Source of the DNA: an uncultured Chloroflexia bacterium
GTDB taxonomy: Bacteria; Chloroflexota; Anaerolineae; CG2-30-64-16
Reading direction: 5' to 3'
Assembly (NCBI GenBank): GCA_963810095.1
Contig: CAWEMM010000006.1
Location: 1,419,353-1,483,352 of the forward strand
Length of the DNA stretch: 64,000 nt
Positions 11,056 through 59,705 of this stretch are shown in pieces; position 1 is the stretch's first letter, and every line of letters begins with the position of its first letter. The position numbers were made by a program, and so were the translations under genes. Below the pieces are notes generated by a model. It did no database searches. It was not told the origin of the DNA and saw only the letters and a list, made by a program, of their open reading frames with translations.

Positions 11056-12315
11056 CTACTCCTGCAGGCACTTGAGACAGTAATCCACTTCTTCGCGTGT
11101 GTTGTAGTGCGCCAGGCCCGCGCGCACTACGCCGCCGCTTTCTTCGATCCCCAGGCGCTCGGTGACGGCCAGCGCATAGAAGTTGCCCGACCATACATAC
11201 ACGCCGCGGCGAGCCAGGTGCTCGGCCACCTCGTCCGGATGCTTGCCCGCGAGCCGGAACGCGGCCGTCGGGGTGCGCCGGTCGAACTGGCTTGGATCGG
11301 CGATGCCGTAGAAGGTCAGGCCGGGGATGGCCCGCAGGCCCTGGGCGAAGTGCGCGAACAGGTCCCGCTCATACGCCTTGATGGCGGCCATCGCCTGCTT
11401 CAACGCCAGCCGGCTGCCTGTGAAGCCCGGGAATTGGCCCTCAAACTCGCCTCCGCACATGCTCCCGAGCTCGGCCAGATACTCGACCGCGGCCAGAACG
11501 CCCGCCTGCGCCTCGTGGGCCTGGGTGCCCGTCTCGAACTTGTCGGGCGACGCGTTGCCGGCCGGACGCACCTTGTAGGCCCGCAGCTGCTCCAGAAGCT
11601 CGTGCCGGCCCCACAGCGTGCCCGAGTGCGGGCCGAAAAACTTGTAAGGCGAGCAGATCAGGAAGTCGCAGCCGAGCGCCTGCACGTCGACCGGACCGTG
11701 CGGGACGTAGTGCACCGCATCGACCCATAACCATGCGCCGGCCGCGTGAACCAGGCGGGCAATCTCGGGGATCGGATTGACCGTCCCGACCGCGTTCGAG
11801 GCGTAGCCGACCGCTACGAGCTTGGTCTTGGGGCCGAGCTTGCTCTGCAGGTCGTCGAGGCGCAGCGTGCAGTCTGCCGGGTCGAAGTCGACCTCCTTGA
11901 CCACAACCCCCTTTTCGGCCAGCGCAAGCCAGGGTGCGCGATTTGCGTCGTGGTCGAGCTTCGTGATGAGCACCTCGTCGCCGGGGGCCAGCTCGCGGCC
12001 GATGGCCCGGCTGACGGCAAACGTGAGCGTGGTCATGTTGGCGCCGAAGACGATCTCGGCGGGCGAGGCCGCGTTGAGCAGATCGGCCATGGCCTCATGC
12101 GCGGCGTGCAGCACTGCGTCGCTCTCGCGGGAGGTGCGGAACGCGCCCCCATGGTTGGCGTTCGATCGGATGAGGTAATGCGCCATCGCATCGATCACGC
12201 GCTGGGGCACCTGGGTGCCGCCGGGTCCGTCGAAGTAGACGGCCGGCCGGCCCGCGTCGACCAGGGCGAGCGCGGGGAACTGGGAACGGACGAAGGAAAG
12301 GTCTAGCTGAGACAT
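11056..12315 (-). CDS. cysteine desulfurase-like aminotransferase class V protein (cysteine desulfurase / selenocysteine lyase family)
   Basis: 419 aa; PLP-lysine region SPYKFFGPH; overall class-V aminotransferase fold. Confidence 0.75.
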   Translation of the reverse strand: MSQLDLSFVRSQFPALALVDAGRPAVYFDGPGGTQVPQRVIDAMAHYLIRSNANHGGAFRTSRESDAVLHAAHEAMADLLNAASPAEIVFGANMTTLTFAVSRAIGRELAPGDEVLITKLDHDANRAPWLALAEKGVVVKEVDFDPADCTLRLDDLQSKLGPKTKLVAVGYASNAVGTVNPIPEIARLVHAAGAWLWVDAVHYVPHGPVDVQALGCDFLICSPYKFFGPHSGTLWGRHELLEQLRAYKVRPAGNASPDKFETGTQAHEAQAGVLAAVEYLAELGSMCGGEFEGQFPGFTGSRLALKQAMAAIKAYERDLFAHFAQGLRAIPGLTFYGIADPSQFDRRTPTAAFRLAGKHPDEVAEHLARRGVYVWSGNFYALAVTERLGIEESGGVVRAGLAHYNTREEVDYCLKCLQE

Positions 12316-15361: not shown

Positions 15362-16513
15362 ATGAGCCAACCGGATACACCTCGGCCGTCCTACGGCCAA
15401 CTGCGCACTTGTCCCAGCTGCGGGACACGGGTCGCTCAGAAAGCTGAAACCTGTTTCTTCTGCGGCGCCGCGCTCGATTCAGAGCCACGCCGCCGGCTGC
15501 GATTGCCCTGGGCCGACCTTGTCCTTTTCGCTGCGATCGCCGCGGTGCTCGCCGTGTGGTGGCTGCGCGCCCCCGACGCACCGGAGACGCGCGGACCGGG
15601 CACGGTCGAAGCCGTCTTGAGCGCGCAGCGGGCCGCCGCGTCGCCCACTGCTGCGATCGTCGCTGCTTTGCAGCTGGACGACCCGACGAACACCCCGATG
15701 CCAACCCGAACGCCGCTTCCCACGTCGACAGTCGCTCCCACTGCTACGCCTGAAGCGGCCTCACCCACTCCGGCGGCGGGTCCGACCCGTCACAAGGTGC
15801 AAGCGGGCGATTCCGTAGCGGCTATTGCTGCCAAATATGGCTCGACGATCAAGGATATTATCTCGGCCAACAACCTGAGCGCGGACGGCCGCCTGAGCAT
15901 CGGACAAGAGCTGCTGATCCCGGTTGCCGGGCCTATGGGTGGCCCGGGACCGACGGCGACCCCCGGCACCACGGGCCTGATGTACAACACGCGGGCCGGC
16001 GACACGATCAGCGGCATCGCGACCCGTTTCAAGTCGCAGGTCGACTGGATCATGAAGGCCAATAATATCAAGCCGGGCGACACGCTGCGCATCGGCCAGC
16101 CGCTCCTGGTCCCGCTGGTGCCGGCCACCCCCACCCCCATACCGACCGATCCGATCACGCCCCTGCCGCCGACGCCCACGGAAATCCCGGGCTTGTCTGC
16201 GCCCCAGCTGTTGACGCCGGCGGACGGCGCAACGATTGCGGGACAAGACACGCTCCTTCTGAGTTGGACGTCGGTGGGTGTGTTGGCTCCGGAAGAGTAC
16301 TACGTGGTGACATTGAAGTCGCCCGAGAAGGAAACCGCTGTCGCAACGTGGTGGACCAAGAGCACGTCGTGGCGGCTGCCGGTCGATTACCGGCCCACCG
16401 GCAGCGCAGGGCTGGATTACGTCTGGCGGGTGCAGGTGCGGCGGGGCGGGCAAGACAAGCCGGGCGAGGCCACCAGTCCCACCAGCGAACAGCGGCGTTT
16501 CACCTGGCGTTAA
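15362..16513 (+). CDS. zinc-ribbon / TM / double-LysM peptidoglycan-binding protein with Pro/Thr linkers
   Basis: N-terminal CPSCG...CFFCG zinc ribbon, TM helix, two LysM repeats (HKVQAGDSVAAIAAKYG... and YNTRAGDTISGIATRF...), PT-rich linkers. Confidence 0.8.
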   Translation: MSQPDTPRPSYGQLRTCPSCGTRVAQKAETCFFCGAALDSEPRRRLRLPWADLVLFAAIAAVLAVWWLRAPDAPETRGPGTVEAVLSAQRAAASPTAAIVAALQLDDPTNTPMPTRTPLPTSTVAPTATPEAASPTPAAGPTRHKVQAGDSVAAIAAKYGSTIKDIISANNLSADGRLSIGQELLIPVAGPMGGPGPTATPGTTGLMYNTRAGDTISGIATRFKSQVDWIMKANNIKPGDTLRIGQPLLVPLVPATPTPIPTDPITPLPPTPTEIPGLSAPQLLTPADGATIAGQDTLLLSWTSVGVLAPEEYYVVTLKSPEKETAVATWWTKSTSWRLPVDYRPTGSAGLDYVWRVQVRRGGQDKPGEATSPTSEQRRFTWR

Positions 16514-16567
16514 CGGGCGACCCCAGTGACTGCAAGTGCCGGGCACCTTCAAGGTGCCCGGCACTTT

Positions 16568-17358
16568 TCAGTTTGCGGTGGGAAGATGCAGCACGGCGTA
16601 TAGGTTCAGATTGCCTTCGTGGCCGTCGGAGAAAAAGGTCTCCTGCGCCCCAAGGCCCGCCGCGGCCGCCATTTCTTTGAGCTCCGCCTCGTCGATGTAC
16701 GCGCAATAGCGGGCCCCCGGCGATCCTTCCCCCCACCCCACCAGGTAGTCGTTGCGCTCGACCTCGGCCAGATCGATCCCGACAGAATCCCAGGAGGCGA
16801 TGCGCTTTCTGAGCCGGTCGGAGGCCATGAACTGCCAGGTGGACACGATCAGGGGCGCGCCGGGCGGCAGCAGGGCTGCGCTCCGCCGCGAGAAACTCGA
16901 TGCGGTGACTGCGGCCGGGGATGTGGTGCAGGACCGCCAGGCAGACCGCTGCGTCAAACGGGCCCGCTTGAGACAAGGCGCCGGGCCAGTCGGGCGCGAA
17001 GAGGTCGGCCTCGACGAGCGCGGACGGGATGCGCGGGCGCTGCGCAGCCGTGGCGGCTGCATCTGCCAGCAGGTTCGTGCTGCTGTCCAGCCCCGTGTAG
17101 CGGCCGGTCCAGCCGCTGTCGTCGAGGAAGACGAGGAACCGGGCGTTGCCGCAGCCCAGGTCGAGGACGTTGAACCCGTTTTCCAGATAGGGTAGAATGC
17201 GGCTGAAGCCGGGGGGCCACGAGCGCCGGGTGCGCGAGAACTCGCCGGCGAAGCGCGCATAGAACTGCCTGTTGAGCGCGAGGAGCGCGGCGACCGTCTG
17301 GGGTTGCATTTGATCTTGCGGTTGGCTTTGATCTTGAGGTTGCATGTGTTGAGGTTGC

Positions 17359-17361
<3 letters not shown>
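16568..17361 (-). CDS. class I SAM-dependent methyltransferase; apparent frameshift near 16885
   Basis: VLDLGCGNARF SAM-binding motif in one frame; conserved C-terminus (PLIVSTWQF...YAVLHLP) in ORF 16568..17260 frame. Confidence 0.6.
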
Positions 17362-19095
<1,734 letters not shown>

Positions 19096-19280
19096 GGAGA
19101 GCTCTCGACTCGCGTGCGCCCACGGCTCCGCATCCTTCGATTACGCTGCGCTCCGCTCGGCCTGTTTTTTCGTTGCGGCCGTGCGGCGTGAGCTGTTTTT
19201 GTCCCGCGGTTGTTCATGCTATACTTGCGCCACTTAGAGAGGCTTGAGGACGGGTTTCCACGCAGACAAGGAGCGCGCAG

Positions 19281-19502
19281 ATGGATTTCGGCAAGTTCTT
19301 GCTGGGGTTGTTGGTGGGTGCGGCCAGTGGCGCCGCTGCCGCGTTGATGCTGACGCCTCAGTCAGGCGAGGCGACGCAGAACTCGATTCGCGAGCGCGTG
19401 CAGCTCGTCATGGACGAGGGGAAGCGCGCGGCTGCCGAGCGGCGGGCCGAACTCGAAGCCCAATTTGCGCAAGCGCGGCAGACGCCTCGGCTAGAGGGCT
19501 GA
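19281..19502 (+). CDS. YtxH-like small membrane protein (DUF948-like)
   Basis: 73 aa; FLLGLLVGAASGAAAALMLTPQSGEATQ matches YtxH N-terminal pattern. Confidence 0.55.
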   Translation: MDFGKFLLGLLVGAASGAAAALMLTPQSGEATQNSIRERVQLVMDEGKRAAAERRAELEAQFAQARQTPRLEG

Positions 19503-19537
19503 CCGAGCGGCGCCGGCATTGTCGAGAGGGGGCTCAG

Positions 19538-20293
19538 GTGCTGACCAGCAAGCTCGAGGCCGCGCAGACCCGTCTCCGCGAACGCTCGTATCCCCATTTT
19601 GCCTGGCTGATCAACAAGGAGATCCCCTGGACCGCCCCCACGCGCCCGCTGCGCGAGTCTTCGGTGGCGCTGCTCAGCACCTGCGGACTGTACTGCCTGG
19701 ATAGCCAAGTGCCGTTTGATGCCTGGAACGACGCCGGCGACCCGTCGTTTCGCGAGATTCATATCGACACTCCGGTCGACCGGCTGGCGATCTCGCATTC
19801 GCATTACGATCATGAGCAGGTCAGGTCCGATCTGAACGTGGCCCTGCCCTTGGCCCGCTTCCGGCAGCTCGTCGAGGAGGGGGTGGTCGGGACGCTGCAT
19901 CCCTGGGCCTACAGCTTCATGGGCTACCTCCCCGAAGCGTTTCAACTGATCAGAAAGACGGCGCCCCAGGTGGCAAAGCGGCTGGCGGGGAGTGGGGTGC
20001 ACGCGGCCTTCCTGACCCCCTGCTGACCGATCTGCCAACAGTCCGTTGGACTGATCGCACGGGCCATCGAAGCGGAGGGCATCCCGACCGTTTGCGTCGT
20101 GATGAATCGCGACATTGCGGAGAACGTGGGCATTCCGCGAGCCTTGCACGTGCATTTTCCGTACGGCGCGCCGCTGGGGCCGGCCGCGCACGTGGAGACG
20201 CAAATGGCCGTGATCCGGGAGGCGCTCGGCCTGCTTGCCACGGCGACTGGCCCGGGGCAGATTCTGGAATCCACGGTCGAGTGGCCGGAGTGA
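19538..20293 (+). CDS. GrdB/PrdB-family (glycine/betaine/proline reductase selenoprotein B-like) selenoprotein, in-frame UGA (Sec) at 20024-20026
   Basis: GTG start after RBS GAGAGGGGG; ORF 19244..20026 and ORF 20099..20293 are in the same frame separated only by TGA; U lies in C-U-P-I-C i.e. UxxC motif; conserved-looking protein continues downstream of TGA. Confidence 0.7.
20039..20053 (+). promoter_or_regulatory. candidate bacterial SECIS hairpin (CAGUCC-GUU-GGACUG) 12 nt downstream of the UGA
   Basis: 6-bp stem with GUU triloop; position relative to UGA matches bacterial SECIS spacing. Confidence 0.55.
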
Positions 20294-20329
20294 CCGGCTT
20301 TTCTCAGTGATTCTTCAGGAGGAAGACTC

Positions 20330-20593
20330 GTGCGCGTCAGCATCGAATTCTGCGTAGCCTGAAACTACACGCCGCGGGCCGCCAGTTTGGCGGAAACTTT
20401 GGTCAACACCTTCAAGCCTTTCGTGGGCGGGAAACATCCCATCGAGTCCATCACCCTGATCCCCTCGGGCAATGGCCGCTACGAGGTCACGCTTGACGAC
20501 GAGCTGGTCTACTCAAAGGCCGCAACGGGCAAACACACGACAAACGAGTTTATCGTCGACCAGGTGCGAGCAAGACTGAAACTGCAACACTAG
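20330..20593 (+). CDS. SelW/Rdx-family selenoprotein, in-frame UGA (Sec) at 20360-20362 in C-V-A-U motif
   Basis: RBS AGGAGG 7 nt before GTG 20330; translation VRVSIEFCVAU NYTP... matches Rdx N-terminal IEYCxxU pattern; the track ORF 20387..20593 is its C-terminal part called from an internal TTG. Confidence 0.75.
20379..20393 (+). promoter_or_regulatory. candidate SECIS hairpin (CCGCCA-GUU-UGGCGG) 16 nt downstream of the UGA
   Basis: 6-bp stem with GUU triloop, same architecture as hairpin at 20039. Confidence 0.55.
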
Positions 20594-20603
20594 CCAACAA
20601 TCT

Positions 20604-21953
20604 ATGATCGACATCTCGCTGATCATCACCATCGGCGCCATCTTTCTTTTGTCGCTGACGGCCGCATATTTGCGTTCCCGAACGAGAGACCGCTGCCTGA
20701 AGTCTTGGGAAGGATTTCACGTAACGCTGGAGCGCACGAACGGCAAGCTGGTGTGGGGTGAGCTGCACGTGGTGTCGACGGGGATGGAGTTCGTCTATGC
20801 CGGGTCGGTGCAGGACGAACGCCACCTCGAGTCCTCCTATCTTCTATATGCCTCGGAGTACGCCGAGATCCAGGCGCTCTACCGCTACGTCGCCGACCTG
20901 TCGGACCAGAGCAAGCAGCAACGGCTGCGCGACATCGATTCCTCCTTCCACCCGAACCCTGCGCGCCGCCTGCGCCGCGACGCGCAGAACTTCTTCGGCA
21001 CCGCCACCGACTCCCTGAACGAAGTCATCGGCCTCGTCGTCGGCCGGGCGGGCAAAGTGGGCGGCCGCTATATCGCCGCCGACGGCACGTCCTCGATCAA
21101 GAGCCTGAGCGGCAAGGTGCTCGGCCAGGTCGGCTCGATTTACGATCCGCTCCTCGAACGCTATATTGGGAGCCGCGTCGTGATCGAGTTGCTCGAGGGC
21201 CAGGAGGTGCACGAGCATGTGGGGATCTTGCGGAATTACAGCCAGGACTTCATCGAAATTCTCGACGTGCGTTATCCGCAGCGGCGGTCGGTTGCAGTCG
21301 AGGCAGGTGGGCGGGTCGAAGGAGAGGGGTTAATCGTCGAAAAGGTGCCCGGCAGGATCCATCTGCGCAACTGCAATGACTGGCCGGTGCTGGTCCATTC
21401 GCTGGCTTATGCGGACCACGAGGAGATGATTAATGCGGTCGTCGACGGCGACGAGGAAATCGACCTGAACGTGGAAGACGTGTCCGCACAATCCGTTAAG
21501 CTGATCGTGCGCATTCCGGAAGAACTCGACTTTATCGTGCCGCGCAGCCGCTGCGTGGTGCGTCACCGGGCGGAACAGTACCGCCAGGCCGATTTCAAAG
21601 CGCTCGTCGAGGATGTCGTTTTCGACGTGGGAAGGATATTCTCGACCAGCGGCCGCGACAACGGCCACGACAATACCGAGGCGCGGCTGCGTCAAGATGT
21701 GCGCCGGGACCCGATGAACGCGGCGGCCGCGGCTAACCTCGGATTTCTCTTAATGCAGCGGGACGAGTTGGCCGAGGCTGAGAAGTGGCTGCGGCATGCG
21801 CTGCAGTTCGAGTATTCGCTGCCCGACGGCGGCCGCCGGACGCGCATGCAACTGCGCGAGATCGAACGGCGCCGCGAGGGGTTGGATGCCTATGTCCAGG
21901 GTGCGATTCAGTCCTCGCCGACCGTCATTGGAGGCGAAGGCTCGGATTTGTGA
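20604..21953 (+). CDS. hypothetical membrane-anchored protein with C-terminal helical (TPR-like) region
   Basis: 449 aa; N-terminal TM helix; no catalytic motif recognised. Confidence 0.5.
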   Translation: MIDISLIITIGAIFLLSLTAAYLRSRTRDRCLKSWEGFHVTLERTNGKLVWGELHVVSTGMEFVYAGSVQDERHLESSYLLYASEYAEIQALYRYVADLSDQSKQQRLRDIDSSFHPNPARRLRRDAQNFFGTATDSLNEVIGLVVGRAGKVGGRYIAADGTSSIKSLSGKVLGQVGSIYDPLLERYIGSRVVIELLEGQEVHEHVGILRNYSQDFIEILDVRYPQRRSVAVEAGGRVEGEGLIVEKVPGRIHLRNCNDWPVLVHSLAYADHEEMINAVVDGDEEIDLNVEDVSAQSVKLIVRIPEELDFIVPRSRCVVRHRAEQYRQADFKALVEDVVFDVGRIFSTSGRDNGHDNTEARLRQDVRRDPMNAAAAANLGFLLMQRDELAEAEKWLRHALQFEYSLPDGGRRTRMQLREIERRREGLDAYVQGAIQSSPTVIGGEGSDL

Positions 21954-21959
21954 TGTGCT

Positions 21960-22918
21960 ATGAGGAGGGATGCTTGTATGGCAGGTGAAACTTGCTGTGT
22001 GTGCGACAAGCCGATCGCCGGCGCGGCAAAGATGCTGGGGGGCCGCGCGTTTTGCGAGGAGCATTATGCCGCGTGTGGGGCAAAGCCGGCGAGGGCTGTG
22101 GCTCGCCACGGTCTTCCTGATCGTCGGGCTGGCGCTGTTCGTCACTGCCGTATTTTTCGCGGCGCCCGCGGTGCGCGACTCGCTGCAGGGTCCGGCCCTG
22201 GTCTTCGCCGGACTGCTGCTGGCGCTCGTTCCGGCGGCCATCTGGATGGTCGTGTTCTACCTGCAAGACCGGGCCGAGCCGGAGCCGAAGCGTTACGTGA
22301 TTGGCGTGTTTTTGCTCGGCGTGCTCCTGGCTGCGGCAATTGGTCAGCCATTGATCCGGGCGTTCGACGTGAACGCATGGGCCGCGCGGCAGCCTGGCAC
22401 TGCGGCTGCTGGCCGGCGTGTGCGTCATCGGCATCACGCAGGAGTTTCTCAAGTACGCGGCGGTGCGCTACACCGTGTTCGGCAGCGCGGAGTTCGACGA
22501 GCGAATTGACGGCATCATCTACGGGGCGGCCGCGGGCCTGGGCTACGCCACCTACCTGAACGTCAATTACGTCATCTCGAACGGCGGCGTGGACATTGGG
22601 ATCGGAGCCGTGCGGATCGCGGTCGTCGCGCTGGCCCAGGCGTCATTCGCCGGCGTCACCGGCTACTTCCTAGGCCGGGCCAAGTTCGAGAATCGGGGGC
22701 CGTTCTGGCTCCCGGTCGGGCTGTTTCTCGCCGCAGTGCTGAACGGGGTCGTCACGACGCTACTCAGCGAGATTACGCGCAGCGGCCTGCAGCCCACGCC
22801 GCTCAATGGCCTGATCTTTGCCGCCGTCGTGGCGGCGCTCACCTTTATCATCCTGTTCACCGTGATCCGCCGGGGTGCGCGGCCGATGCCCGCCGTGGCA
22901 GGAGGAGTGAACTCATGA
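21960..22918 (+). CDS. PrsW-family intramembrane protease-like protein with N-terminal Cys-rich zinc-ribbon; two apparent frameshifts (about 22075 and 22390)
   Basis: CCVCDKP...CEEHY in frame 0, TM region in frame 1, PrsW-like motifs QEFLKYAAV and DGIIYGAAAGLGYA in frame 2. Confidence 0.5.
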
Positions 22919-23524
22919 CCGCTGCTGCTGTCAAAATGCCTCGCAGCCGGGGCCGTGCCGAAGAGCCCGAGTGGCTGGTGTGGGCGCTGGTGCTGGTGAT
23001 GCTGGCCATCGGCCTCCTCGCACGGACGGTCGTGCTGGGTCAGACAACCACGTTCACTGCGGGCGGCGTCTCGGTTAAATACCCGGCCGCGTGGATTGCC
23101 CTAACTAAGCAGAATGACGATGACGCTGCTGACTGTGGGCCAGCCTTTTGCGGGCGGGCTTTTCCCGGCGCGTTTCGCGCTGCTGCAGATGCCGGCGAGC
23201 AGCATCAGCCGGAACGCCCAGTCGCTCGGCGACTTTGCGCTGCAGTGGTCGGACCGGGGGGCGCAGGATCTGCTGGGATACAAAGTGCTGAACATCGAGC
23301 CGGTGCAGGTGCGGGGCAAGGACGCGGTGCGGGTCGACTACGTGTACGTCGCCGAGCCGGCCCTTGCCACCCCGAACAGCATCCCCATCGTCGCGCAAGG
23401 GGCCGACATCCTCATTCCGGCGGGCGACAAGATGACGGTTGCCCGGCTCGTGGCTGCGTCCGACGAATTCGACGGCTTGGGCCAAACCTGGGACCGCATT
23501 CTCGGCTCCCTCGAGCTGCAGTAG
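22915..23524 (+). CDS. hypothetical membrane-anchored protein; apparent frameshift near 23115
   Basis: N-terminal TM segment in ORF 22915 frame, conserved-looking remainder in ORF 23114..23524 frame; ATGA overlap with upstream gene. Confidence 0.45.
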
Positions 23525-23533
23525 GAGGCGACG

Positions 23534-25111
23534 ATGAAACGTAACTACCGCACGGCAATTCTCGCCGTCCTGGTGCTGCTGAGCCTGGCGGGCACGCTGG
23601 CGGGCAGTGCGCCGCGTGCCGAGGCCGTGGACAAGGACGTCGCCCAGCGCATCCTGCGCGCATCGGTCAAGCTGCTGACCCCCATGGATGCGGACGAGAA
23701 CTCGGGGAGCCTCTGTTCGGGCAGCATGCTGGACCCGCAGGGCTACATCCTGACGAACTTCCACTGCATCGGCTATCCGACGTCGGGCCCGAAGGACCAG
23801 GAGCTGGAAAGCCTGGGCATGGAGCCCGGCGACCTGTTCAACTCGAAGGGGCTGTCGGTGGTGGCGGTGACGGACGACCCCCGCAAGCTCCCGAAGCCCA
23901 CCTATGTCGCGCAGGTCATGTCTTCCGACCCCGAGCTGGACATTGCCGTGCTTAAGGTGATTGCGTACTACAACAGCAAGCAGAAGTTGACGGACAACCT
24001 GCCGGTGATGACGATGGACGTGGCCGATTCGGAGGCCGTTGAGACGCTGGACGACGTCATCGTCGTTGGCTATCCGGGCATTGCGGGCGACACCGTTACG
24101 GCCACGGAGGGCCGTATCTCCGGCTTCATTGACGAGGACGGCGACGATAACTTCGATTGGTTCAAGACCGACGTGTTGGTGAATCAGGGGAATTCGGGCG
24201 GCTCCGCGCTGAACGCCAAGGGCGAATTGATCGGCGTGCCGACGGCCCGGCTGCAGGACAAGTCGGGCAACGTGATCTACCTGATCCGGCCGGTCAACCG
24301 GGCCGCGGCCTATATTGAAGAAGCGCACAAGGTGGGCGCCAGCGGCGGGCAGGTGGCGACAAAGCCGCCAAGCAAGCCGGCCGCGCCTGCTCAGACGAGC
24401 GGCAAGGGGACGTTCGGCGAGCCCATCTTCGGCACGGGCTTCGACGATAACGATGGGATCACCGGCGAAGCAACCACGTTCAACTCGGGCATCAAGGAAA
24501 TTCACGCGGGTCTGCCTTACGAGAACATGCGGGACGGAACCTCCTGGGGCTACCAGTGGCAGTACGAGGGCCAGGACGTGACGGGCGAGTCGGACCTGGC
24601 GTGGGAGTTCGGCCAGTCTGGCGTGGTCGACTTGAGCCTGACCGGCAAGAAGGGGCTCACGGACGGCGAGTACAGCCTGCAGGTATACCTGCGCGGCGAC
24701 CTCGTGCAAGAGACCGGGTTTACGGTCGGACGCAAGCCGGGCAACAACCGGCCGCCCCAGAAGCCGCAGAAGCCGGTGGACGAGGGTGTGACGATCACCG
24801 GCACGATCATCGACCATGCCACCCGGCGGCCCATCCGCGACGCGATCGTCGTATTCCTGAATCCGGGGCAGACGGTGGACGATTTTGATGCGGACTCGAG
24901 TGACGGCAAGACAGAGACGGTATTCGCCTACGGCGTCAGCGACGCAAAGGGGATTTACACGCTGAACAATCCGCTGCCGCGCGGCGAGGTCTACACCGTG
25001 ATCGTTGGTGCGAAGGGCTACGCCCGCATCGCCGAGGACGACGCGCTGGAGATAACGCAGGATGATCCGGACGTGATCGAGCTTGATCCGCTGGAGTTGG
25101 ACAAGCAGTAG
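23534..25111 (+). CDS. secreted trypsin-like (S1) serine protease with C-terminal beta-rich domains
   Basis: Signal peptide; His (TNFHC), Asp (DIAVLKV), Ser (GNSGGSAL) catalytic triad motifs. Confidence 0.8.
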   Translation: MKRNYRTAILAVLVLLSLAGTLAGSAPRAEAVDKDVAQRILRASVKLLTPMDADENSGSLCSGSMLDPQGYILTNFHCIGYPTSGPKDQELESLGMEPGDLFNSKGLSVVAVTDDPRKLPKPTYVAQVMSSDPELDIAVLKVIAYYNSKQKLTDNLPVMTMDVADSEAVETLDDVIVVGYPGIAGDTVTATEGRISGFIDEDGDDNFDWFKTDVLVNQGNSGGSALNAKGELIGVPTARLQDKSGNVIYLIRPVNRAAAYIEEAHKVGASGGQVATKPPSKPAAPAQTSGKGTFGEPIFGTGFDDNDGITGEATTFNSGIKEIHAGLPYENMRDGTSWGYQWQYEGQDVTGESDLAWEFGQSGVVDLSLTGKKGLTDGEYSLQVYLRGDLVQETGFTVGRKPGNNRPPQKPQKPVDEGVTITGTIIDHATRRPIRDAIVVFLNPGQTVDDFDADSSDGKTETVFAYGVSDAKGIYTLNNPLPRGEVYTVIVGAKGYARIAEDDALEITQDDPDVIELDPLELDKQ

Positions 25112-28537: not shown

Positions 28538-29456
28538 TCAGGCCACGACCGCCCGGTACGATGGGGCAAACTCGAGCGCGGTGCTGATCGTGCGGAACTG
28601 GATGTCGACGGTATCTTCGATGCGACGCGCATAGCCGCCGCCCATGACCACGGCGACGGGGATGCCGGCCTCGCGGCAGCGCTCCAGCACAAGGCAGTCG
28701 CGCCGGGCCAGGCCCTCTTTGGTCAAGGCGAGCCGGCCCAGGGTGTCGCCCGCGAAGGGATCCGCGCCGGCGAGGTAGATGGCGAAGTCTGGGCGGAAGG
28801 TGGGCAGAACGCGGTCCAGAGCGCTCGTCAGCAGGTCGAGGTACAGATTATCGTCGGCCCCGTCGGGCAACTCCACGTCCAGGTCGCTTTGCTCCTTGTG
28901 GTGCGGGAAGTTCTTGGCGCCGTGCATGGAGAAGGTGTAGATGCTCGGGTCGCCGGCCAGGAGGGCGGCCGTCCCGTTCCCCTGGTGTACGTCGCAATCG
29001 ACGATCACCGCCCGGCGCGCCCGGCCCTCGCGCTGCATGGCGCGGCGCGGCCACGACACAATCGTTGAACACGCAGAAGCCCTCGCCGTGATCGGCGAAG
29101 GCGTGGTGCGTGCCGCCGGTCAGGCTGGCGGCCAGCCCCTCTTGCAGCGCGGCCCGGCAGGCCCCCAGCGTGCTGCCCACGGAGCGCCGGCAGCGCTCGA
29201 CCAACTCGGGCGACCAGGGGAGCCCGATACGCCGCACCTCGCGGGCCGACAATTCGCCGGTAACCACCTTGTCCAGGTAACTTTGCTCGTGGGCCAGGAG
29301 CAACTCGTCGTCGGTTGCCGCGTCTGGCACGAGCATCTCGCAGCGGTCGCCCAGCTCGCGGCCGACTCGTTCACGCAGCAACGAGTACTTGGCTGCGGGG
29401 AACCGGTGGCCCTGGGGCAGCGGGTAGGTGAAGTGGTCGCAGTAAAAGACTTTCAC
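28538..29456 (-). CDS. histone deacetylase-family (AcuC/HDAC-like) deacetylase; apparent frameshift near 29045
   Basis: N-terminal part VKVFYCDHF...GGTHHAFADHGEGFCVFND in ORF 28848..29729 frame; C-terminal VIVDCDVHQGNGT... in ORF 28538..29059. Confidence 0.65.
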
Positions 29457-31075
29457 TGGGCCTGCGTGCCGCCTTGCTGCTTCGGCGTGTCGGGGCGCAC
29501 CACCTCGCCGCGCGCGACCGGCGCCAGCATCTGATCGACCGGCGCGTACTGGTCGGTGAGCACCGTCGCCCGCCCACTCGCGAGGATGGACCGCACGGTC
29601 GAAGCCGGCAGCGCCAGGTCGGCCAGCAGCGTCTCGCCGTCGCCCGCGTCGATGTTCTTGAAGCGCTCCATGTTGATCGGGGCCCGGGAGGCCAGGATGA
29701 CGAAGGTCACCCGGGGCGAGTCCTGCCAACCCCTGATCGCCGGCACAACCTCGACATGGTCGAACGTCTGCTGCAGCGTGTTGACGTACGCGGCCAGGAA
29801 GTCGCGGCGCGGGCCGTCGATCAGGTTAACCATGTAAATGCCGTCGTCGGCCAACCACGCGCTGACCCGCTCGTTGAACTCGCGGGTCGTCAGGTGGTAT
29901 GGTACCGAGTAGTCGTTGAACGCGTCGCCCATGATGAGGGAGTATTGGCGGTCGGGGCGGCGCTCCAGGAACAAGCGGGCGTCCTCGTTGAACGACCGCA
30001 CGCGGGTGTCGCGTTTGAGCCCCAGCAGATCGTACGCCACTTGGGTTACGCCCGGGTCGATCTCGATGACGTCCAGGTCGCTGTTCGGGTAGAGCGCCTC
30101 CATGTAGCGGGGGAACGTGTAGCCGCCGCCGCCGATGAACAGGGCAGACAGCTTTTCGTGACTCAGCGACTGGTAGCGGGCTACTTCCGCGTAGACTTTC
30201 TCATAGCCATACACCAGCCGCCGGGGGTTATCCAGGTCGCTGTACGAATGAACCAGGCGGTCGAGGATCAGCACCCGCACGTTCTCGCCGCGATTCGTGT
30301 CCTGCCGCACCTTGATGCAGAAGTAGTTGGTTTCGAGCGAGCACTGCGACCTCGTCCAGCCTTGCTGCACCGCCGCATACGTCGCGCCGGCCAGGACGAC
30401 CAGCACCAGCAGCCCCGCGACGACCACCCTGCGGCCGCCGGAGCCGGCGAGCAGGAATCCCAGGGCCATCAGGAACAAGACGACGGCGACGCCCCAGATG
30501 ATGGCGTGGGTGCCGAACCAGGAAATGAGCAGGAAGCCGGTGGCGAAGGTGCCGACAATGCTCCCGACGGTGCCTGCGGCCGAAATCCGGCCGACCGTGC
30601 TGCCCGTTCGCGCGAGATCGTGGAGTGCAAGCTTCGTCACCACCGGCGAGACCGTGCCCAGGACCATGGCCGGGATGAAGAAGACGGTGGAGACGAGCAC
30701 GAGGATGCGCAAGACGATGGGCCAGGCATCGGGCAGGGATTGGCCCACGAGGTCTACGAACAGGACCGCCACGCTCGTCAGGCCGCCCAGGAAGAAGAGC
30801 AGGCTCAGAAGACGGTAGGAGGCCCAGCGGTCGGCCAGCCGGCCACCCAGGTAGTTGCCGAGACTCATGCCGGCCAGGATGACGCCGATGATGGTCGTCC
30901 AGGTGTAGAGCGAGACGCCCACGTAGGGCGCCACGATCCGGCCGGCGACCAACTCGAGCACCATCATGCACGCGCTGGAGACGAAGACGATCAGCATTGC
31001 CGCCCACAGGCGCGGCGCCGGTCGTGCGATTTCGCTTTCCATCGGTCCTCGTGGTTCGTCAGTTAATGTCGCCAT
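29453..31075 (-). CDS. fused MFS-like membrane domain / spermidine synthase-like protein
   Basis: 540 aa; N-terminal polytopic region, C-terminal spermidine-synthase-like domain; common Chloroflexi/actinobacterial architecture. Confidence 0.75.
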   Translation of the reverse strand: MATLTDEPRGPMESEIARPAPRLWAAMLIVFVSSACMMVLELVAGRIVAPYVGVSLYTWTTIIGVILAGMSLGNYLGGRLADRWASYRLLSLLFFLGGLTSVAVLFVDLVGQSLPDAWPIVLRILVLVSTVFFIPAMVLGTVSPVVTKLALHDLARTGSTVGRISAAGTVGSIVGTFATGFLLISWFGTHAIIWGVAVVLFLMALGFLLAGSGGRRVVVAGLLVLVVLAGATYAAVQQGWTRSQCSLETNYFCIKVRQDTNRGENVRVLILDRLVHSYSDLDNPRRLVYGYEKVYAEVARYQSLSHEKLSALFIGGGGYTFPRYMEALYPNSDLDVIEIDPGVTQVAYDLLGLKRDTRVRSFNEDARLFLERRPDRQYSLIMGDAFNDYSVPYHLTTREFNERVSAWLADDGIYMVNLIDGPRRDFLAAYVNTLQQTFDHVEVVPAIRGWQDSPRVTFVILASRAPINMERFKNIDAGDGETLLADLALPASTVRSILASGRATVLTDQYAPVDQMLAPVARGEVVRPDTPKQQGGTQAQ

Positions 31076-32188: not shown

Positions 32189-34164
32189 TCAGTTCGATCG
32201 GGCGTCCCACATGGCTTCTCGGGTCAGGGGCAGGAGCCCCACGGCCTTGCCGTCGACATCGGTCAGAGTCAGCAGCCAGCCGGTTCCGGTATCGTGTGCG
32301 GCGAGGATCTGGCTCTCGGACACCCACCGCGGGCCAACGATGCTCGTTGCGTTTGCAAGCCGCGCCGGCTCGCGGCCAGGCGCACCGGCGAATATCTGGA
32401 AATTATCCTGGTAAATGAACTCGTTTCCCTGAGGCGACCAGCTGATGAATTCGCCCTGGTTTGTCGACGCGTAGAGCTCAGATTGGGTGCCATCAGCCTT
32501 CGCCAGGTACAACTCCTTTGTCGCCAGCGTATCGTCAGTCCACCGAGTGTATGCCATCGCGTTGCCAACCGGCGACCAATAGACCTCCGACGCATCGACC
32601 TGGCCGGCTTCCTTGGCGTCGCCGTTGGCCGTCACCCGGTACAGCTTCGTCCCGTTTGGCGGCACAGGCGTCCCGTAGTCTGCTGTCGGGATAGCGACCC
32701 AAGCTTGCTTGCCGTCGGGCGCCCAGACAACCTGGTTGTCGTAGCCGTTCTTCCCCGGGCTGGCCGGGAAGGTCAGCACCGTCTTGCTCTTCCCGTCTTT
32801 TGCGTCCACAAGGTTCAGGGTGCCTTCGGGGTTTTCCACGGTGCCGTACTGCAGGACCAGGTACTGCTTACCGTCCGGCGAAAAATAGGGCCGCCACGCC
32901 GCGCCCAACTCGCCGACACGCCGCAGCTTGCCCGTCTCAACATCGACTTGCCAAACCTCGGTCTTGACCTGCAGCGAGGTCTGGGGGTCGGGGACCACCG
33001 CCATCGTGACGGTGAGCGTGTTCGGTTCCGCGCCCCAGCGCGTGTCGCTGATTGCCCGCCGCACGTAGCCCGTGGGTAGTCCCTCGGTTGGCAGCTTGTT
33101 GTCGTCGAGCAGCAGCTTGGGCTGGCCGCCTTCCCAGCGGACCGCCCATACTTGCAGGCCCTGCTCGGCGTAGATCCGATAGACGACCCAACGCTGGTTC
33201 GGCGAGAGCTGGGGCGTGTTGATGCCGCGGCCCTGCACGAGCTGGCGCAGCCCGCCGTCCCGGTCGATGGCCCACAAGGCGTTCAGGTCCGAATACGCCA
33301 TGCGCACGCCCGGGGGCAGCGCTTCGGCCAGCGGCCGGCCGGGCGGGGTTGCCTCGGGCGTCAGGAACTCGGGCGGAATGCCGACCGGCGACGACGGCCC
33401 GCCGCCGCCGCGACCCATCGCGGCCGCACCCATTTCCGGAGCAGCTGCGGCAGCGGCCGCACCTGCCGCCCCGATGCCGGGCGTCTCGGTCGCAGGCGCG
33501 GCCTTGGCCATCAGCGGCGCTTCGACGGTGGGTGAAGGCTCAGGTTGGGCCGGAGTCGCAGCGGGCGCGGGCGCCGGTGCAACGTCCGCCGCTGCATCGG
33601 TGGGCGGGGCAGACATCAGGGCGGGCTGGGGCGCCTCGGTTGCAGCCGGCGGCGCGTTTTCCGCGCTCGACTGGGCTGCGGACGCGGCGGCTGCGGCGGG
33701 AGGCGCTTCAGTGGGGGCGGCGGCAGAAACCGGCTGCGTCTCCGCGAGTTGTGCGACGGGCGCTGGGCTTGGGACCGCGCGGGCGACAGTCTGCGGCGGG
33801 TTCCACGGCGCCTTGTCCGGCTCGCAGCAGGCTGAAGGCGACGAACGCAACCACCAGGACGGCCGCGACCGCGCCGAGGCCGCGCGCGAGCCCGCCCATC
33901 CAGCCGGGCGAGGCGGCGGGCCGGCGAATGCCGACCTGTGCCTCTGAGAGTGTGAATGCGCGAGGCACCGCGACGCGAGGCAGGGTTTGCAGCAGGTACA
34001 CGGTGCGGCGCAGGCTGTCCAGCTCTGCCGCGGCACTCCATGCACTGCTGCAGGTGCGCGTCGATGTACGCTCGCTCGGCCGGCGCAGCCTGTTGATCCA
34101 GGTACGCGGAAAGCTGCTCGACCTGGACGTGGCCCCGGACCGGGCCTCCGAAAAGTGATTTCAT
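32189..34164 (-). CDS. anti-sigma factor: zf-HC2 domain, TM helix, Pro/Ala-rich linker and WD40-like/TolB-type beta-propeller; two apparent frameshifts (about 34010 and 33805)
   Basis: HLQQCMEC zinc-finger in ORF 33616..34248, TM in ORF 33708..34001, propeller-like C-terminal 400 aa in ORF 32189..34045; directly downstream of ECF sigma gene. Confidence 0.55.
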
Positions 34165-58562: not shown

Positions 58563-59705
58563 ATGCCCTGGCGAGAGGCAAATGCCATGTCCTTACGACT
58601 TGATTTCGTGACCCGAGCTGGTCACGAAGCTGCTAACGTGCGGGCCCTGTGCCGCGAGTTCGGTATCAGCCCGAACACTGCGTACAAGTGGCTTGTGCGC
58701 TACCAGGCGGCGGGGCCCGCGGGGCTGGCCGATCGCTCACGGCGCCCGAACGCAGTCCGAGCCGACACGCCGCCCGGCCGCGAACAGTTGGTGCTGGCGA
58801 CGCGCCAGGCCCACCCGGCCTGGGGCGGCCGCAAGCTCAAGGCCTACCTGGAGCAGGCCGGCTATGCGGACGTGCCGGCAGCTTCCACCATCACAGCCAT
58901 TCTGCGCCGGCACGGGGCGCTGGATGACCAGGAGGGCGCTCAGCATCGCGCCTTTCAGCGTTTCGAACGTGAGGCGCCCAACGAGCTGTGGCAGATGGAC
59001 TTCAAGGGCCATTTTGCGCTCGGGGATGGTACGCGCTGCGACCCCTTGACGGTCCTCGACGACCATGCGCGCTTCCTGTTGGCGCTGGACGCCTGTGCCG
59101 ACGAGACCCGCCGCACGGTGCAGGCCGCGCTGACCGGCGTCTTCGAGCGCTACGGCTTGCCCGAGCGCATCCTGTGCGATCATGGGCCACCGTGGGGCGC
59201 CCCCAATGCCGGCGACGTGTACACGACGTTGAGTGCGTGGCTCTTGCGGCTGGGCATCGGGGTCGTGCACGGGCGGCCCAAGCATCCGCAGACGCAAGGC
59301 AAGGACGAGCGATTGCATCGCACGTTGCGGGCCGAGTTGCTGCGCCGGCAGACGTTCGCCGATCTGCCGGCCTGTCAGCCCGCCTTCGATACCTGGCGGC
59401 AGATGTATAATGAACAGCGCCCGCATGAGGCGCTAGCCATGCAGGTGCCGGCGGCCCGCTATCGGCCCAGCCCGCGCCCGTGGCCCGCCCGCCTGCCCGC
59501 GATCGAGTATCCGGCCAGCGACCGAGTGCGCCGGGTGCAAGATAAGGGCCAGATCAAAGTCGGCGGCCACGAGTTTCGCATCGGCAAAGCCTTCATCGGC
59601 TACCCGGTGGGCCTCCGGCCCACGAACCAGGACGGCTGCTATGACGTTTACTTCTGCGCCCAGCGCATTGGCCAAATTCAACTATCCGCCGGGCAACGGA
59701 TTTAG
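58563..59705 (+). CDS. IS481-family transposase (DDE/rve integrase)
   Basis: 380 aa; HTH N-terminus, rve core with HGRPKHPQTQGKDERLHRTL. Confidence 0.85.
   Translation: MPWREANAMSLRLDFVTRAGHEAANVRALCREFGISPNTAYKWLVRYQAAGPAGLADRSRRPNAVRADTPPGREQLVLATRQAHPAWGGRKLKAYLEQAGYADVPAASTITAILRRHGALDDQEGAQHRAFQRFEREAPNELWQMDFKGHFALGDGTRCDPLTVLDDHARFLLALDACADETRRTVQAALTGVFERYGLPERILCDHGPPWGAPNAGDVYTTLSAWLLRLGIGVVHGRPKHPQTQGKDERLHRTLRAELLRRQTFADLPACQPAFDTWRQMYNEQRPHEALAMQVPAARYRPSPRPWPARLPAIEYPASDRVRRVQDKGQIKVGGHEFRIGKAFIGYPVGLRPTNQDGCYDVYFCAQRIGQIQLSAGQRI

Follow-up and report, generated by a model that had tools for sequence, protein, structure and literature searches.

The window analysed here is the whole stretch of 64 kb. 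Two adjacent genes in it each contain an in-frame TGA codon followed closely by a small hairpin (Table 1). The downstream one is a candidate selenoprotein gene of the SelW-like (Rdx) type, and the upstream one is a candidate PrdB-like selenoprotein gene. An initial annotation had placed at the downstream gene a GTG start with AGGAGG seven nucleotides before it and a TGA after the peptide VRVSIEFCVA, and direct reading of the sequence gave the same coordinates. The frame reads V-R-V-S-I-E-F-C-V-A-TGA-N-Y-T-P-R-A and, beyond the TGA, runs on as NYTPRAASLAETLV... to the TAG stop codon.

Table 1. Features of the SelW-like and PrdB-like genes and their candidate SECIS-type hairpins (positions in the window).
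Feature	Position	Strand	Description
PrdB-like (GrdB/PrdB family) selenoprotein	19538..20293	+	251 aa, GTG start, Sec codon 163 (TGA 20024-20026), stop TGA 20291-20293
SECIS-type hairpin of the PrdB-like gene, CAGUCC-GUU-GGACUG	20039..20053	+	stem 12 nt, loop 18 nt after UGA
Shine-Dalgarno box AGGAGG	20317..20322	+	read directly; 7 nt spacing to GTG 20330-20332
SelW-like (Rdx family) selenoprotein CDS	20330..20593	+	87 aa, GTG start, Sec codon 11, stop TAG 20591-20593
Redox motif Cys8-Val-Ala-Sec11 (TGC GTA GCC TGA)	20351..20362	+	Cys8 at 20351-53, Sec codon 20360-20362
Bacterial SECIS-type hairpin CCGCCA-GUU-UGGCGG	20379..20393	+	6-bp stem, 3-nt loop

The mechanical list of open reading frames has a single call at this locus, the 68-aa frame from TTG (20387..20593); the initial annotation was right that the track reports the downstream part alone. 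The NCBI/ENA protein P0310 is exactly this 68-aa product, and a cluster look-up placed both truncated frames, SelW-like and PrdB-like, on one NCBI/ENA contig. Of the 92 homologous SelW-like loci, 56 have an SD-like motif no more than 20 nt before the start.

The 87-aa read-through product, with U written as C, matches the Pfam family Rdx (PF10262) with 66.7 bits (E = 2e-18, cutoff 22.6). The match covers profile positions 1-73 of 74, that is, the domain end to end. The truncated 68-aa product scores 35.9 bits and aligns from profile position 20 on; the gain is due to the 19 residues that precede the TTG. With the NCBIfam model TIGR02174 (CXXU_selWTH, cutoff 34.2), the full-length protein scores above the cutoff (48.0) and the 68-aa form below it (25.7). 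The equivalog model NF041051 (SelTWH_Campy) gave 68 bits with the 87-aa product, short of its cutoff of 88; the protein is a relative of that group and not a member.

Six solved bacterial Rdx structures (3DEX, 2FA8, 2P0G, 2OBK, 2OKA, 2OJL) were matched in a sequence search of the PDB and in its profile version. Residue 11 (U) aligns with the second cysteine of CxxC in each of the six alignments; the counterparts of the motif are IEYC-TQ-C in 3DEX and IRYC-TQ-C in 2FA8, and CTQC also occurs in 2OBK and 2OKA. By homology to these structures a thioredoxin-like fold may be expected. Cys-form relatives likewise have CxxC at the position of the Sec motif (ITFCLPC in P0128, IRFCSMC in P0161, IEYCADC in P0168, ILYCHEC in P0179). 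Thus the search of PF10262 and the alignment with cysteine-containing homologs, both proposed in the initial annotation, upheld the SelW/Rdx assignment and put U on the second redox residue. An exhaustive search of a library of representatives with residues 12-87 as the query yielded mostly short, truncated proteins; the few longer ones carry CxxC. Three distant Rdx relatives (P0135, P0157, P0167) have tryptophan (IEYCVPW, LEYCAAW) or serine (IEYCVKS) at the Sec position. The tryptophan forms may reflect a TGA translated under genetic code 4 by the gene caller.

The best explanation of positions 20330-20593, to which as a whole we assign a probability of roughly nine in ten, is a genuine 87-residue selenocysteine protein of the bacterial "SelW-like" type, within the Rdx (SelT/SelW/SelH) family. 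The TGA is at codon 11 in all 92 sequences compared, namely the window, 11 loci from Anaerolineae/Chloroflexota genomes (L001-L011) and 80 loci from metagenome contigs, and holds down to about 35% protein identity among the genome and metagenome loci. Both the TGA and Cys8 are invariant in the 76 distinct sequences. The metagenome scan did not select for TGA; of its patterns, one was the N-terminal peptide and the other demanded a Cys codon. The genome scan used mainly downstream patterns. TGC and TGT are one base change away from TGA, and an error of sequencing or assembly, or a recent nonsense mutation of a Cys codon, has to be considered. Assembly errors do happen in such genomes: in L011 (CAWDBO010000024.1) nearly every gene is in frameshifted pieces, the SelW-like gene after codon 41 included, and this looks like an assembly error, not gene decay. 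However, 91 independent loci, drawn from various assemblies and studies, have the identical TGA, and no form with a Cys codon was found among close relatives. Error or recent mutation is accordingly extremely unlikely, and the conservation in the 91 loci rules out a pseudogene or a sequencing error.

Another reading is that the TGA is a true stop, the 68-aa protein starting from TTG 20387 is functional, and the ten upstream codons are vestigial or due to chance, in other words, that an Rdx gene has decayed at its N-terminus. All automatic gene calls in the databases take the 68-aa type of form, and the truncated product retains its Pfam Rdx score of 35.9 bits. In a collection of 5.8 billion proteins, 120 relatives are 51-77 aa long, save one 147-aa fusion call. 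They cover about 57-78% of the SelW-like query, and thus all of them are cut at the same point; many bear the JGI label "predicted Rdx family selenoprotein". However, the upstream codons behave as coding sequence. The N-terminus M-[RK]-[IV]-[TS]-I-E-F-C is conserved, with synonymous variation of the DNA, across the 11 genome loci and the 80 metagenome loci, in the latter partly by selection, as the N-terminal peptide was a search pattern. The residues I5, E6, F7 and C8 are invariant in the 76 distinct sequences and are encoded by two or three codons each. Entropies per codon position are 0.56/0.46/1.25 in codons 2-10 and 0.67/0.46/1.27 in codons 12-16 of the same sequences; the coding periodicity before the TGA equals that after it. 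In 92 of 92 sequences an ATG or GTG start codon stands exactly ten codons before the TGA. The TTG of the public call is not conserved, as it is replaced by CTG in 37 of the 76 distinct sequences, and it falls inside the conserved hairpin described below. Finally, the truncated protein, which does not reach the TIGR02174 cutoff, would be left without the first beta strand and the entire redox motif. A true stop is therefore very unlikely. The initial annotation had named two observations that would speak against it, homologs starting downstream of the TGA with no CxxC/U region, and non-conserved upstream codons. Instead, the start lies ten codons upstream everywhere, and I-E-F-C is invariant over synonymously varying DNA.

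The preferred reading, a selenocysteine codon, calls for a SECIS element, and the hairpin in the SelW-like gene is a good candidate. Its stem begins 16 nt after the UGA and its apical loop 22 nt after the UGA. The minimum free energy is -8.6 kcal/mol, and none of 200 shuffled sequences is as stable. The published model of bacterial SECIS elements has a loop of 3-9 nt, a stem of 4-16 bp, a minimum free energy of at most -7.5 kcal/mol, a G in the first two loop positions (usually G[G/U]), and a distance of 16-37 nt from the UGA to the loop (PMC13188914); the hairpin lies within all these limits. Local folding z-scores of 61-91-nt fragments are not significant; the bare hairpin alone stands out. 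No Rfam SECIS family matched the hairpin, even when the search was relaxed from the gathering threshold to E <= 10; this null result is uninformative, as Rfam models are not expected to capture bacterial SECIS elements. When open, GC3-rich frames of the whole window were scanned for a TGA followed by a 6-bp stem and a GU-loop, the SelW-like and PrdB-like sites and one implausible hit emerged.

Of 73 distinct sequences, 67 have the stem in the same register with all six pairs formed. The first loop position is G in all 73, the loops being GUC (35), GUU (23), GUA (10), GCA (4) and GGU (1). Among 62 diverged sequences, 366 of 372 cells of the core helix are paired and double compensatory changes occur at three pairs; these six-pair counts are taken from the per-pair table of the tested 8-pair structure. 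The covariation score of the 8-pair structure is 0.263, compared with 0.167 +/- 0.009 in shuffled alignments, none of 500 shuffles reaching 0.263; slid controls give 0.098 at most. With 12 sequences alone the signal is weak (one varying pair, 36 of 500 shuffles), and it is clear with the 62 diverged sequences. In the genome loci L003 and L004 a change from C-G to U-A in the stem costs two amino acid substitutions, A18V and A21T, and L001 has a U.G intermediate at the same pair. The entropy at third codon positions falls to 0.66 in the hairpin codons, compared with about 1.25 in the flanks, which points to constraint at the RNA level.

These data bear on a further possibility, that the UGA is read through without selenocysteine, either by a near-cognate Cys or Trp tRNA or through reassignment (genetic codes 4 or 25), yielding a Cys, Trp or Gly form of the Rdx protein. 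No tRNA-Sec was found in the 64-kb window, and no selA, selB or selD among the 26 large ORFs scanned in it, and the few distant relatives with W or S at the Sec position would agree with this possibility. However, leaky read-through gives no reason for a conserved hairpin that fits the SelB-dependent bSECIS model and has compensatory changes. Moreover, the codon is at the catalytic position, where Sec/Cys pairs define known selenoproteins (PMC1088965, PMC2398784). As for reassignment, no other codon serves as an ordinary stop in the window as often as TGA, which terminates 22 of 40 confident ORFs, the PrdB-like and YtxH genes included, so that the standard code applies and an alternative one is ruled out. 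Overall, read-through without selenocysteine is very unlikely.

If the codon does specify selenocysteine, the likely course of events is as follows. Translation would start at GTG 20330, and the ribosome would pass the UGA at 20360-62 without terminating. The hairpin, a putative bacterial SECIS element with the loop G-U-U, would be bound by SelB, the elongation factor that brings Sec-tRNA(Sec), and selenocysteine would be inserted at codon 11 by this SelB-dependent route. Cys8-x-x-Sec11 would then occupy the place that the redox centre CxxC has in Rdx proteins. The protein may act as a small thiol/selenol oxidoreductase that alternates between the selenol/thiol state and a selenenylsulfide formed within the molecule.

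The upstream gene has a GTG start after GAGAGGGGG and reads ...AAFLTPC-TGA(20024-26)-PICQQSVG.... The motif C-U-P-I-C (LTPC-U-PIC) corresponds to the UxxC of the GrdB/PrdB family with selenocysteine. The PrdB model TIGR04483 matches residues 30-244 with 147.9 bits, spanning the TGA and not reaching the equivalog cutoff of 300; the match to Pfam GRDB (30.2 bits) also crosses the TGA. Judged by these matches, the protein is best termed PrdB-like, not PrdB. The TGA is conserved in all eight genome loci that carry the gene. Public PrdB-like calls are almost all exactly 162 aa long and thus truncated (P0181 and nearly all of its 120 relatives). The hairpin of this gene has a minimum free energy of -6.7 kcal/mol when taken bare and -7.8 kcal/mol with 3-nt flanks. 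The stem and a G-U-N loop (CAGUCC-GU[UGC]-GGACUG) are kept in seven of the eight loci; L005 has one G.U pair. The neighbours of the gene encode an ELP3-like radical SAM protein, YtxH, the SelW-like protein, a TPR protein and PrsW; neither PrdA, other prd genes, nor GrdC, GrdD or GrdE were found nearby among the 26 ORFs scanned. A 245-aa PrdB-like homolog, P0251, with 49% identity, has no TPCUPI segment and keeps ...GALCQQSVG...; it is possibly a Sec-less variant of the family.

In the window, the PrdB-like gene ends 36 nt before the SelW-like gene with no terminator-like site in between, and the two are probably co-transcribed and may share a redox pathway. Of 38 informative close relatives, 26 have a PrdB-like gene before the SelW-like gene, at a distance of 13-93 nt, or of 223 nt in one partial match. 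The gene order common to the 11 Anaerolineae genomes is LysM, ELP3-like radical SAM/GNAT, YtxH, [PrdB-like], SelW-like, [449-aa TPR], PrsW, and beyond PrsW there follow a 136-aa protein and a trypsin-like protease (window positions 15362-25111; L001-L011). Within this conserved order, the PrdB-like gene and the TPR gene are each present in some genomes and missing from others. In L001, L003 and L004 the PrdB-like gene is cleanly absent, the synteny being otherwise identical and the SelW-like gene kept, which rules out the PrdB-like protein as an obligatory partner. None of the distant SelW-like genes adjoins a PrdB-like gene. The neighbours of 45 distinct distant loci (L040-L092) are heterogeneous, ruling out a general redox partner for SelW-like genes; the nearest large neighbours include phosphofructokinase (8 loci), MCP/GAF (5) and proline dehydrogenase (3), and such recurrences may be lineage-specific synteny.

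The pairing within Anaerolineae weakly suggests a functional link between the two genes. One rather doubtful possibility, drawn by analogy with GrdB-GrdA, is that the PrdB-like (UxxC) and SelW-like (CxxU) proteins form a dedicated two-selenoprotein reductase module in which the SelW-like protein is the redox carrier. It would re-reduce the PrdB-like enzyme or take an intermediate from it. Such a module would be the first concrete biochemical partner for bacterial SelW-like proteins, and would add a type of selenoprotein operon absent from the lists in current reviews. The operons named in a 2026 review are grdA-grdB, prdB-prdC, frhA-frhD-hdrA, Prx with a SELENOW-like gene as seen in metagenomes, SAO and Tso; a prdB-like gene paired with a SELENOW-like gene is not among them (PMC13188914). 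The GrdB-GrdA and prdB-prdC operons likewise consist of adjacent selenoprotein genes, a GrdB/PrdB-family UxxC protein and a small CxxU protein, and GrdA also has CxxU (PMC2398784, Table 2). However, the small partner in the window is an Rdx protein with no relationship to GrdA or PrdC.

Bacterial SelW-like proteins with CxxU have been on record for about twenty years. They rank first in abundance among prokaryotic selenoproteins in the Sargasso Sea data (48 sequences) and the GOS data (427), with few Cys forms, and UxxC proteins of the PrdB type likewise belong to the most abundant ones (PMC1088965, PMC2398784). SELENOW-like proteins (PF10262, CxxU) are among the high-confidence predicted families of the 2026 review (PMC13188914). 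The window gene shows no essential difference from bacterial SelW-like selenoproteins. These are likewise small and single-domain, with an N-terminal CxxU and an in-frame stem-loop after the Sec-UGA that has a G in the small apical loop; Sec forms far outnumber Cys forms, and a redox role is presumed. Compared with the solved Cys-form proteins, those of the Anaerolineae/Chloroflexota clade carry a 6-residue insertion (KPxVGxxHPIE), and their genes often stand next to one for a PrdB-like selenoprotein. The Cys Rdx structures (3DEX is SAV_2001 and 2FA8 is Atu0228) align over residues 2-84, with CxxC on CxxU, but have Cys for Sec, are about 20 residues longer and are about 30-40% identical.

Mammalian SELENOW, SelT, SelH and Rdx12 belong to the same Pfam family and have the same CxxU near the N-terminus. 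The only non-bacterial PDB match was C17orf37 (2LJK), a distant one; mammalian SelW was not among the PDB hits. Eukaryotic selenocysteine insertion involves a SECIS element with a GA quartet in the 3' UTR and SBP2/eEFSec, whereas the window gene has a small hairpin within the coding sequence just after the UGA.

The SelW-like protein is thus an ordinary member of a long-known and very abundant family, and the value of the finding is that of an annotation correction. Gene finders shorten the gene because its TGA codon, which very probably specifies selenocysteine, is taken for a stop, and lengthening it is a repair. The correction restores the redox motifs of two adjacent genes and would identify the organism as one that uses selenium. 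Hundreds of public relatives are recorded in truncated form (68 aa, 162 aa) because the TGA was read as a stop, with their catalytic centres missing or split. A mildly new point is the position of the SelW-like gene directly after a second selenoprotein gene, and the recurrent PrdB-like and SelW-like cassette provides a concrete, testable hypothesis on SelW-like function.

Elsewhere in the window, a class-V aminotransferase of the cysteine desulfurase/selenocysteine lyase type (Pfam Aminotran_5, 244 bits) is encoded at 11056-12315 on the minus strand. Two large ORFs on the minus strand (29453-31075 and 32189-34045; 540 and 618 aa) have high GC3 and no Pfam match at E <= 1e-5. An IS481-type transposase gene with an rve integrase core and HTH_32/LZ_Tnp_IS481 domains is found at 58563-59705 on the plus strand.
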